DNA of 64,000 nucleotides. Origin: Escherichia coli. Its GTDB lineage: Bacteria; Pseudomonadota; Gammaproteobacteria; Enterobacterales; Enterobacteriaceae. The position numbers and the translations under genes are program-made. Shown one piece after another: positions 61,834 through 62,590 of the stretch. Each line of letters begins with the position of its first letter. Position 1 is the stretch's first letter. The stretch lies in assembly GCF_003334255.1 (NCBI RefSeq), contig NZ_QOWU01000021.1; one strand, 5' to 3'. The notes beneath the pieces are model-generated. The model was not told the DNA's origin. It worked only from the letters and a program-made list of their open reading frames with translations, and did not search any database.

Positions 61834-62590
61834 TTGAGTGCGGGACGCCTGAATAAAAAATCTCTGGGTATCGTGATGTTGTTATCGGTTGGACTGCTTT
61901 TGGCGGGCTGTTCGGGTAGCAAATCATCCGATACAGGAACGTATTCCGGCTCCGTTTACACCGTGAAACGGGGGGATACGCTATATCGTATTTCGCGCAC
62001 CACGGGAACCAGCGTAAAAGAACTGGCGCGACTGAACGGCATTTCCCCCCCCTTACACCATTGAAGTTGGTCAGAAACTAAAACTGGGTGGGGCGAAAAG
62101 TAGCAGTATTACACGTAAATCAACCGCCAAATCAACGACCAAAACCGCATCGGTTACACCGTCATCAGCGGTACCGAAATCATCCTGGCCGCCAGTAGGG
62201 CAACGTTGTTGGTTATGGCCAACGACAGGGAAAGTTATCATGCCGTATTCGACAGCAGATGGCGGCAATAAAGGGATTGATATCTCAGCTCCACGGGGTA
62301 CACCTATTTACGCCGCGGGTGCAGGAAAGGTGGTGTATGTGGGCAACCAGCTGCGTGGCTACGGTAATCTCATCATGATTAAACACAGTGAAGATTACAT
62401 TACGGCTTACGCCCATAATGACACGATGCTGGTAAATAATGGGCAAAGCGTGAAGGCTGGGCAAAAAATCGCCACTATGGGGAGCACGGATGCGGCATCT
62501 GTTCGCCTGCATTTCCAGATTCGTTACCGTGCAACGGCAATTGATCCGCTACGTTACTTGCCGCCTCAGGGCAGCAAGCCAAAATGCTGA
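61834..62590 (+). pseudogene. ygeR: LysM/M23-peptidase lipoprotein YgeR, frameshifted in a C8 homopolymer (62045-62052)
   Basis: Frame 1 from TTG 61834: (M)SAGRLNKKSLGIVMLLSVGLLLAGCSGS (lipobox) ...LARLNGISPP then stop at 62062; frame 2 continues ...YTIEVGQKL.. and ORF 62240..62590 carries the M23 peptidase domain (GIDISAPRGTPIYAAGAGKVVYVG...HLHFQIR); one fewer C restores a 251-aa protein. Confidence 0.75.

Follow-up and report, generated by a model that had tools for sequence, protein, structure and literature searches.

An extra cytosine in a seven-C run probably makes the amidase activator gene actS (ygeR) a heritable pseudogene in one natural clone of Escherichia coli

Neisseria, Haemophilus, Campylobacter and Helicobacter have slipped-strand contingency loci, in which a homopolymer tract turns a gene ON or OFF. 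The programmed frameshift of prfB is, to our knowledge, universally conserved. ActS (YgeR) of Escherichia coli K-12, a lipoprotein of the outer membrane, combines LysM with a degenerate LytM domain; it is an activator of AmiA, AmiB and AmiC, with AmiC preferred in vivo, and is relevant under envelope stress (PMC8360153), and its activation of AmiC requires LysM (PMC9238320). A sigma-E promoter of actS is also cited (PMC8360153). An actS allele with eight C is already known from public records, where it is annotated as frameshifted (E29, 7.1_Anguil and 377323_2f; 'lipoprotein ygeR' of 76 aa, KGI48093.1, UniRef A0A376YZS7). The copy that we describe here, from an E. coli stretch of 64,000 nucleotides (the window; RefSeq assembly GCF_003334255.1), matches those records in the insertion, in the tract that it hits and in its products of 76 aa and 116 aa, but the public records lie on other backgrounds, as would be expected of independent events, and the complete genomes among them lack a duplication in ygeV that the window carries.

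A preliminary description of this DNA had reported that a C8 homopolymer splits the lipoprotein gene ygeR, and upon re-reading the sequence we found all of its coordinates to be correct: positions 62045-62052 are eight C, in the context GGCATTT-CCCCCCCC-TTACACC. The locus and its neighbours are laid out as follows.

Ending at 61419, minus strand: xdhA, the upstream neighbour of actS.
61834-62590, plus strand: actS (ygeR, orthologue of b2865) as a pseudogene, 757 nt versus 756 nt, between xdhA and glyU.
61834-62064, plus strand: 5' fragment ORF of 76 aa, TTG to TGA, with signal peptide, lipobox L-A-G-C (Cys26), LysM residues 42-73 of 42-84 and an out-of-frame tail LHH.
62045-62052, plus strand: C8 homopolymer and site of the +1 insertion; the wild type is C7, encoding Ser71-Pro72-Pro73 as TCC CCC CCT, and MG1655 and the nearest relatives have C7.
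62053-62590, plus strand: rest of actS in the +1 frame (linker and degenerate LytM/Peptidase_M23), whose sole internal start gives the 116-aa ORF 62240-62590, without signal peptide.
62669-62742: tRNA-Gly(CCC) gene glyU, directly downstream of actS.

With the TTG at 61834 that RefSeq takes as the start, the first frame runs through the lipobox and most of LysM (to residue 73 of 84) and ends shortly past the C run (...GISPP-LHH, then TGA at 62062-62064). The M23 domain does continue in the next frame, as had been described; the +1 frame stays open between 62036 and 62590, with the ATG at 62240 as its first start. Deletion of one C gave an uninterrupted protein of 251 aa, the length that had been predicted for a run of seven, and this protein is identical to that of K-12; exact look-up returned the names YGER_ECOLI and 'amidase activator ActS'. 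The comparison with the reference gene that the preliminary description had called for (b2865; WP_001301085.1; NF040883) showed the same locus, the same TTG start and, after removal of one C, the same sequence; the window differs from K-12 in the extra C at codons 71-73, which truncates the product to 76 aa. Annotated relatives have actS in the same order between xdhA and glyU.

In the repaired protein, Pfam places LysM at residues 42-84 and Peptidase_M23 at 145-238, and the NCBIfam ActS equivalog model NF040883 (curated cut-off 375 bits) scores it at 454.2 bits over profile positions 3-242 of 242. The 76-aa fragment (92.6 bits) and the 116-aa ORF (257.5 bits) both stay below the cut-off, so that neither product belongs to the family as encoded. 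Lipobox, LysM and M23 are no longer carried on a single polypeptide: LAGC is kept, LysM is cut and M23 is out of frame. Since the fragments fall below the cut-off and the repaired protein lies above it, the locus reads as an actS pseudogene that would encode no functional ActS member. RefSeq labels the interval 'actS, amidase activator ActS' in relatives and as a 'frameshifted' pseudogene in three complete genomes with C8. The window holds two G/C runs of at least 7 bases (7.1 in shuffles) and one of at least 8 (1.8 in shuffles); the C8 run is statistically unremarkable per se, and what is non-random is the departure from a conserved gene. A promoter and terminator scan around actS gave nothing above shuffle expectation.

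We then compared the window over its full 64 kb with a close relative, E. coli O157:H16 98-3133. The two differ by 17 SNPs and two indels, namely the extra C in actS and a 7-bp duplication in ygeV, and the other 15 homopolymers of at least 7 bases are unchanged (A8, one; A7, six; T7, seven; C7, one). GCA_965136505.1 and GCA_003334255.1 are 100% identical to the window across 20.2 kb, and GCA_014465015.1 and Logan ERR1948968 are identical across 8-10 kb with both the C8 and the ygeV duplication. Logan ERR3331265 and seven similar places (at least eight samples) showed zero mismatches and the C8, without the ygeV duplication. Because C8 occurs in both duplication-bearing and duplication-free genotypes, at least two distinguishable genotypes have it by descent, which marks the insertion as inherited and not as a one-off miscall. 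Some of the accessions could be re-assemblies of one read set, their contigs being alike in length (77,025, 76,943 and 77,202 bp). Our main reading, seen at assembly level, is that a real, heritable +1 insertion (C7 to C8) arose by slippage and makes actS a pseudogene in one natural clone; we put its probability at about 0.87. What the assemblies establish is the mutation itself, that it is inherited, that it recurs and that it truncates the product.

The ygeV duplication (CAGAGGT in tandem at 57523-57529, within ygeV at 55932-57542) leaves YgeV, a sigma-54 regulator, with 536 of its 592 aa and without the C-terminal HTH. Among 5,276 complete genomes matching that region none has it, so it can be used as a private marker, and since 148 index blocks, all of them draft-size contigs, record the identical shortened protein of 536 aa, the duplication marks a real lineage. 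Two non-synonymous private SNPs separate the window from its closest relative (DpaL G270S and XdhB I105L; window positions 53401 and 58799), and we found further members of the clone by look-up of the two variant proteins. XdhB L105 is largely limited to the clone (20 contigs), and DpaL S270 (31 blocks) is also found on backgrounds unrelated to it. Of the contigs with the ygeV duplication, three have an intact actS (C7) and GCA_965136505.1 has C8. Thus all four combinations of ygeV with or without the 7 bp and actS C7 or C8 exist on near-identical backgrounds (0-4 SNPs per 10-13 kb; window 55932-62052). These combinations need at least one extra event, which may have been a reversion (C8 to C7 being one candidate), recombination over a short tract or an independent second duplication, and the few SNPs do not separate the three.

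To place the allele in the species, we queried about 5,410 complete RefSeq E. coli genomes by blastn with allele-specific sequences of 34-36 nt. C7 was present in about 5,360 genomes, C8 in three (E29, O157:H7 7.1_Anguil and 377323_2f, each labelled 'actS, frameshifted'), C9 in one (FDAARGOS_1285) and C6 in 42, 11 of which are ETEC17xx/40xx records of one study. E. coli E29 matches an 80-nt query exactly, yet it is less than 100% identical over 1 kb and has no ygeV duplication. A large protein collection held the corresponding products in these numbers.

251-aa wild type: 61,360 index blocks.
76-aa product (C8): 283 index blocks, 220 contigs, the contigs mostly 10-200 kb.
81-aa product (C6): 133 index blocks, the contigs mostly 2-20 kb.

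The preliminary description had reasoned that its claim would fall if the family were normally split at this point; the family is normally intact, as the preponderance of the 251-aa form shows, and the fragments fail NF040883. Its other condition was that raw reads support C7; at the level of assemblies, independent ones concur in C8. Among ten C8 contigs that we compared, the haplotypes differ by as much as about 370 SNPs per 10.9 kb (up to 3%), with differing ETT2-island content downstream, and one of the ten is SNP-identical to a C7 genome. As C8 sits on divergent haplotypes, the insertion has arisen many times, and C8 is best described as a rare, recurrent allele with many independent origins in E. 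coli.

As a control we used the only other C7 run of the window, at 60421-60427 in xdhA (minus strand), which is intact here. In complete genomes this tract is C8 in 6, C9 in 2 and C6 in 45, against 3, 1 and 42 for actS. Given the same length spectrum at xdhA, the actS tract is not special. In mutation-accumulation lines of E. coli, G·C runs of 7-8 bp are hot spots, and indel rates climb exponentially with run length (PMC8510543). On our reading C7 became C8 when replication slipped in the longest C run that actS has, and because C7 runs are generic indel hotspots the same allele comes up again and again in E. coli at low frequency. Neither ygeR nor b2865 is listed among the per-gene indels in the text supplements of the Foster MMR- data set. 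Literature on ygeR frameshifts yielded only a Q210* nonsense mutation, which lies outside the tract in a lab-evolved strain (PMC8789295); ygeR is otherwise mentioned as part of a region deleted in DGF-298.

The preliminary description had offered both sequencing error and slipped-strand phase variation as sources of such a run. Real slipped-strand mutation is the part that stood, with no other homopolymer indel in 64 kb and with C8 in further accessions and a sister group; error did not, and neither did phase variation as a designed switch. The latter would hold that the C tract is a selected, reversible ON/OFF switch of ActS, with OFF favoured in some envelope stresses. Tract length does toggle the frame (C7 ON, with 251 aa; C6, C8 and C9 truncated), in principle reversibly and recurrently as at the contingency loci, +1 and -1 alleles both occur, C8 has had many independent origins, and the four combinations with ygeV among near-identical relatives are compatible with reversion. 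An OFF state can also be of benefit, as deletion of actS rescues the lysis of ldtF lptC-depleted cells (PMC8360153). Against this, other species do not conserve the tract. Scanning species-representative genomes with a degenerate pattern, we found the peptide GISPPYTIEVG in 36 species, and only one of these, a cryptic Escherichia, encodes Ser-Pro-Pro as TCC CCC CCT; in the other 35 the longest C run is 2-4 bases, with interruptions such as TCT CCT CCG in E. albertii and TCT CCG CCT in Salmonella diarizonae. Interrupted as it is in nearly all of these species, the C tract is a chance product of the synonymous codons that E. coli uses here. Seven bases are, moreover, short for a contingency tract, the OFF state is scarce (C8 in 0.06% of complete genomes and in at most about 0.5% by index blocks), xdhA, a gene without reason to phase-vary, shows equal or higher variation, and in the assemblies C8 reads as stably inherited in the clone and not as a mixture. 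The actS tract therefore differs from the contingency loci in being short, unconserved in orthologues, OFF in less than 1% and like its xdhA control, and an evolved phase-variable locus is very unlikely. In the same scan the E. coli species representative is missing from the 36 pattern matches though K-12 fits the pattern, and E. coli E69 (CP089930.1) has TCT CCA CCC.

A wider version of the switch would have actS alternate between C7 and C8 at a low rate, with C8 at an advantage whenever amidase activity driven by ActS does harm during envelope stress, and with later reversion to C7 or partial rescue by +1 slippage of tRNA-Pro on CCC-C; the four combinations with ygeV would then reflect real reversion. 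We give this version the same slim chance. A specific selection for actS loss was likewise considered, together with phase variability, and rejected, as xdhA gives the same allele spectrum and the tract is unconserved.

Still less probable is a sequencing or assembly artefact, in which a genome with a true C7 was given one C too many by a homopolymer miscall. Such miscalls are frequent in public assemblies and do hit this very tract in long-read 'complete' genomes, where C6 was called in 42, with batch effects and often alongside a C6 call in xdhA. In four assemblies both C7 runs were called as -1, against 0.25 expected (P = 1e-4), and one C8 contig, UGEM01 of an NCTC PacBio record, has many broken genes in the neighbourhood. 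Because the double -1 calls exceed expectation and the C6 records batch by study, C6 in 'complete' genomes is for the most part a homopolymer artefact of long reads, and +1 calls are less prone to be so. The change in the window, in contrast, is +1 and stands alone among the homopolymers of its 64 kb, on a 77-kb contig of short-read style, whereas long-read artefacts are overwhelmingly -1 (42 C6 versus 3 C8). C8 products lie on contigs of normal quality and C6 products mainly on contigs of 2-20 kb. An artefact should also be irreproducible and accompanied by other homopolymer errors, and C8 is instead repeated in several other accessions and in the distinguishable sister genotype.

The slightest chance of all goes to recoding, by which ActS would still be made from the C8 allele in full length and in working form, either because tRNA-Pro shifts to +1 on CCC-C or because transcription slips: CCC-CCC-C belongs to the classic +1-slippery motifs, CCC-C supports +1 frameshifting of up to about 1% when it stands at codon 2 in E. 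coli (PMC4519876) and a +1 slip at either CCC codon would restore the exact S-P-P-Y, but the figure of about 1% applies to codon 2, the most shift-prone, typical non-programmed +1 errors stay below 0.003% (PMC4519876), our reading of the sequence at the actS site found no frameshift-stimulating element, the shifted allele is a rare derived state and ActS is already poorly expressed in unstressed cells. In a programmed frameshift the shifted form would be the conserved one and stimulators would be present, as they are at a second locus of the window.

25436-26534: prfB, with a programmed +1 frameshift; AGGGGG lies upstream of the shift site CTT TGA C at 25508-25514, and a relative is annotated 'programmed frameshift'.

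The downstream frame of prfB is +1 relative to the upstream frame, as in actS C8. Unlike prfB with its AGGGGG and shift site, actS C8 is a rare derived allele (283 split against 61,360 unshifted) with no comparable stimulator identified, and the slippery run is absent from the orthologues of 35 of the 36 species. A trace of full-length ActS might possibly still be made from C8 by +1 slippage on CCC-C. With respect to both switching and recoding, positive evidence is lacking, and actS C8 is no special switch but an ordinary pseudogene that arose at a mutational hotspot of a generic kind.

Under our preferred reading of a heritable slippage mutation, the 76-aa prolipoprotein keeps its signal peptide and lipobox but lacks all of LytM, the domain that activates AmiC, AmiA and AmiB, together with the linker and the final 11 LysM residues; the 116-aa downstream ORF carries no signal for export. 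With part of LysM and all of LytM lost and the downstream ORF unexported, the C8 allele should be null for periplasmic amidase activation, as predicted from published ActS biology. Such a loss may be tolerated and may persist, as ActS is important chiefly when the envelope is stressed or the medium acid, and its role overlaps that of NlpD and EnvC, which cover normal growth. From the same published work we infer that loss of actS is close to neutral.

The biological weight of the finding is small, since it adds one more lineage-specific pseudogene, here of a cell-wall regulator that is dispensable, stress-specific and already understood in its function. The strain can nevertheless be used as a natural, predicted actS null that also carries a truncated ygeV, and the C7 runs of actS and xdhA can serve as sentinel sites, a -1 at both flagging unpolished long-read assemblies among RefSeq 'complete' genomes. 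The locus is also a worked example of how a mutation can be told from an artefact without reads, by finding clonal siblings through private linked markers. Beyond glyU, an integrase or island is inserted in several relatives, and ETT2 content is variable. Window position 64000 is the last base of contig QOWU01000021.1 (GCA_003334255.1), so that the window almost certainly forms the final 64 kb of this draft contig; in relatives an IS421 transposase begins at about this point (63978-64000), a typical short-read break at an IS copy.
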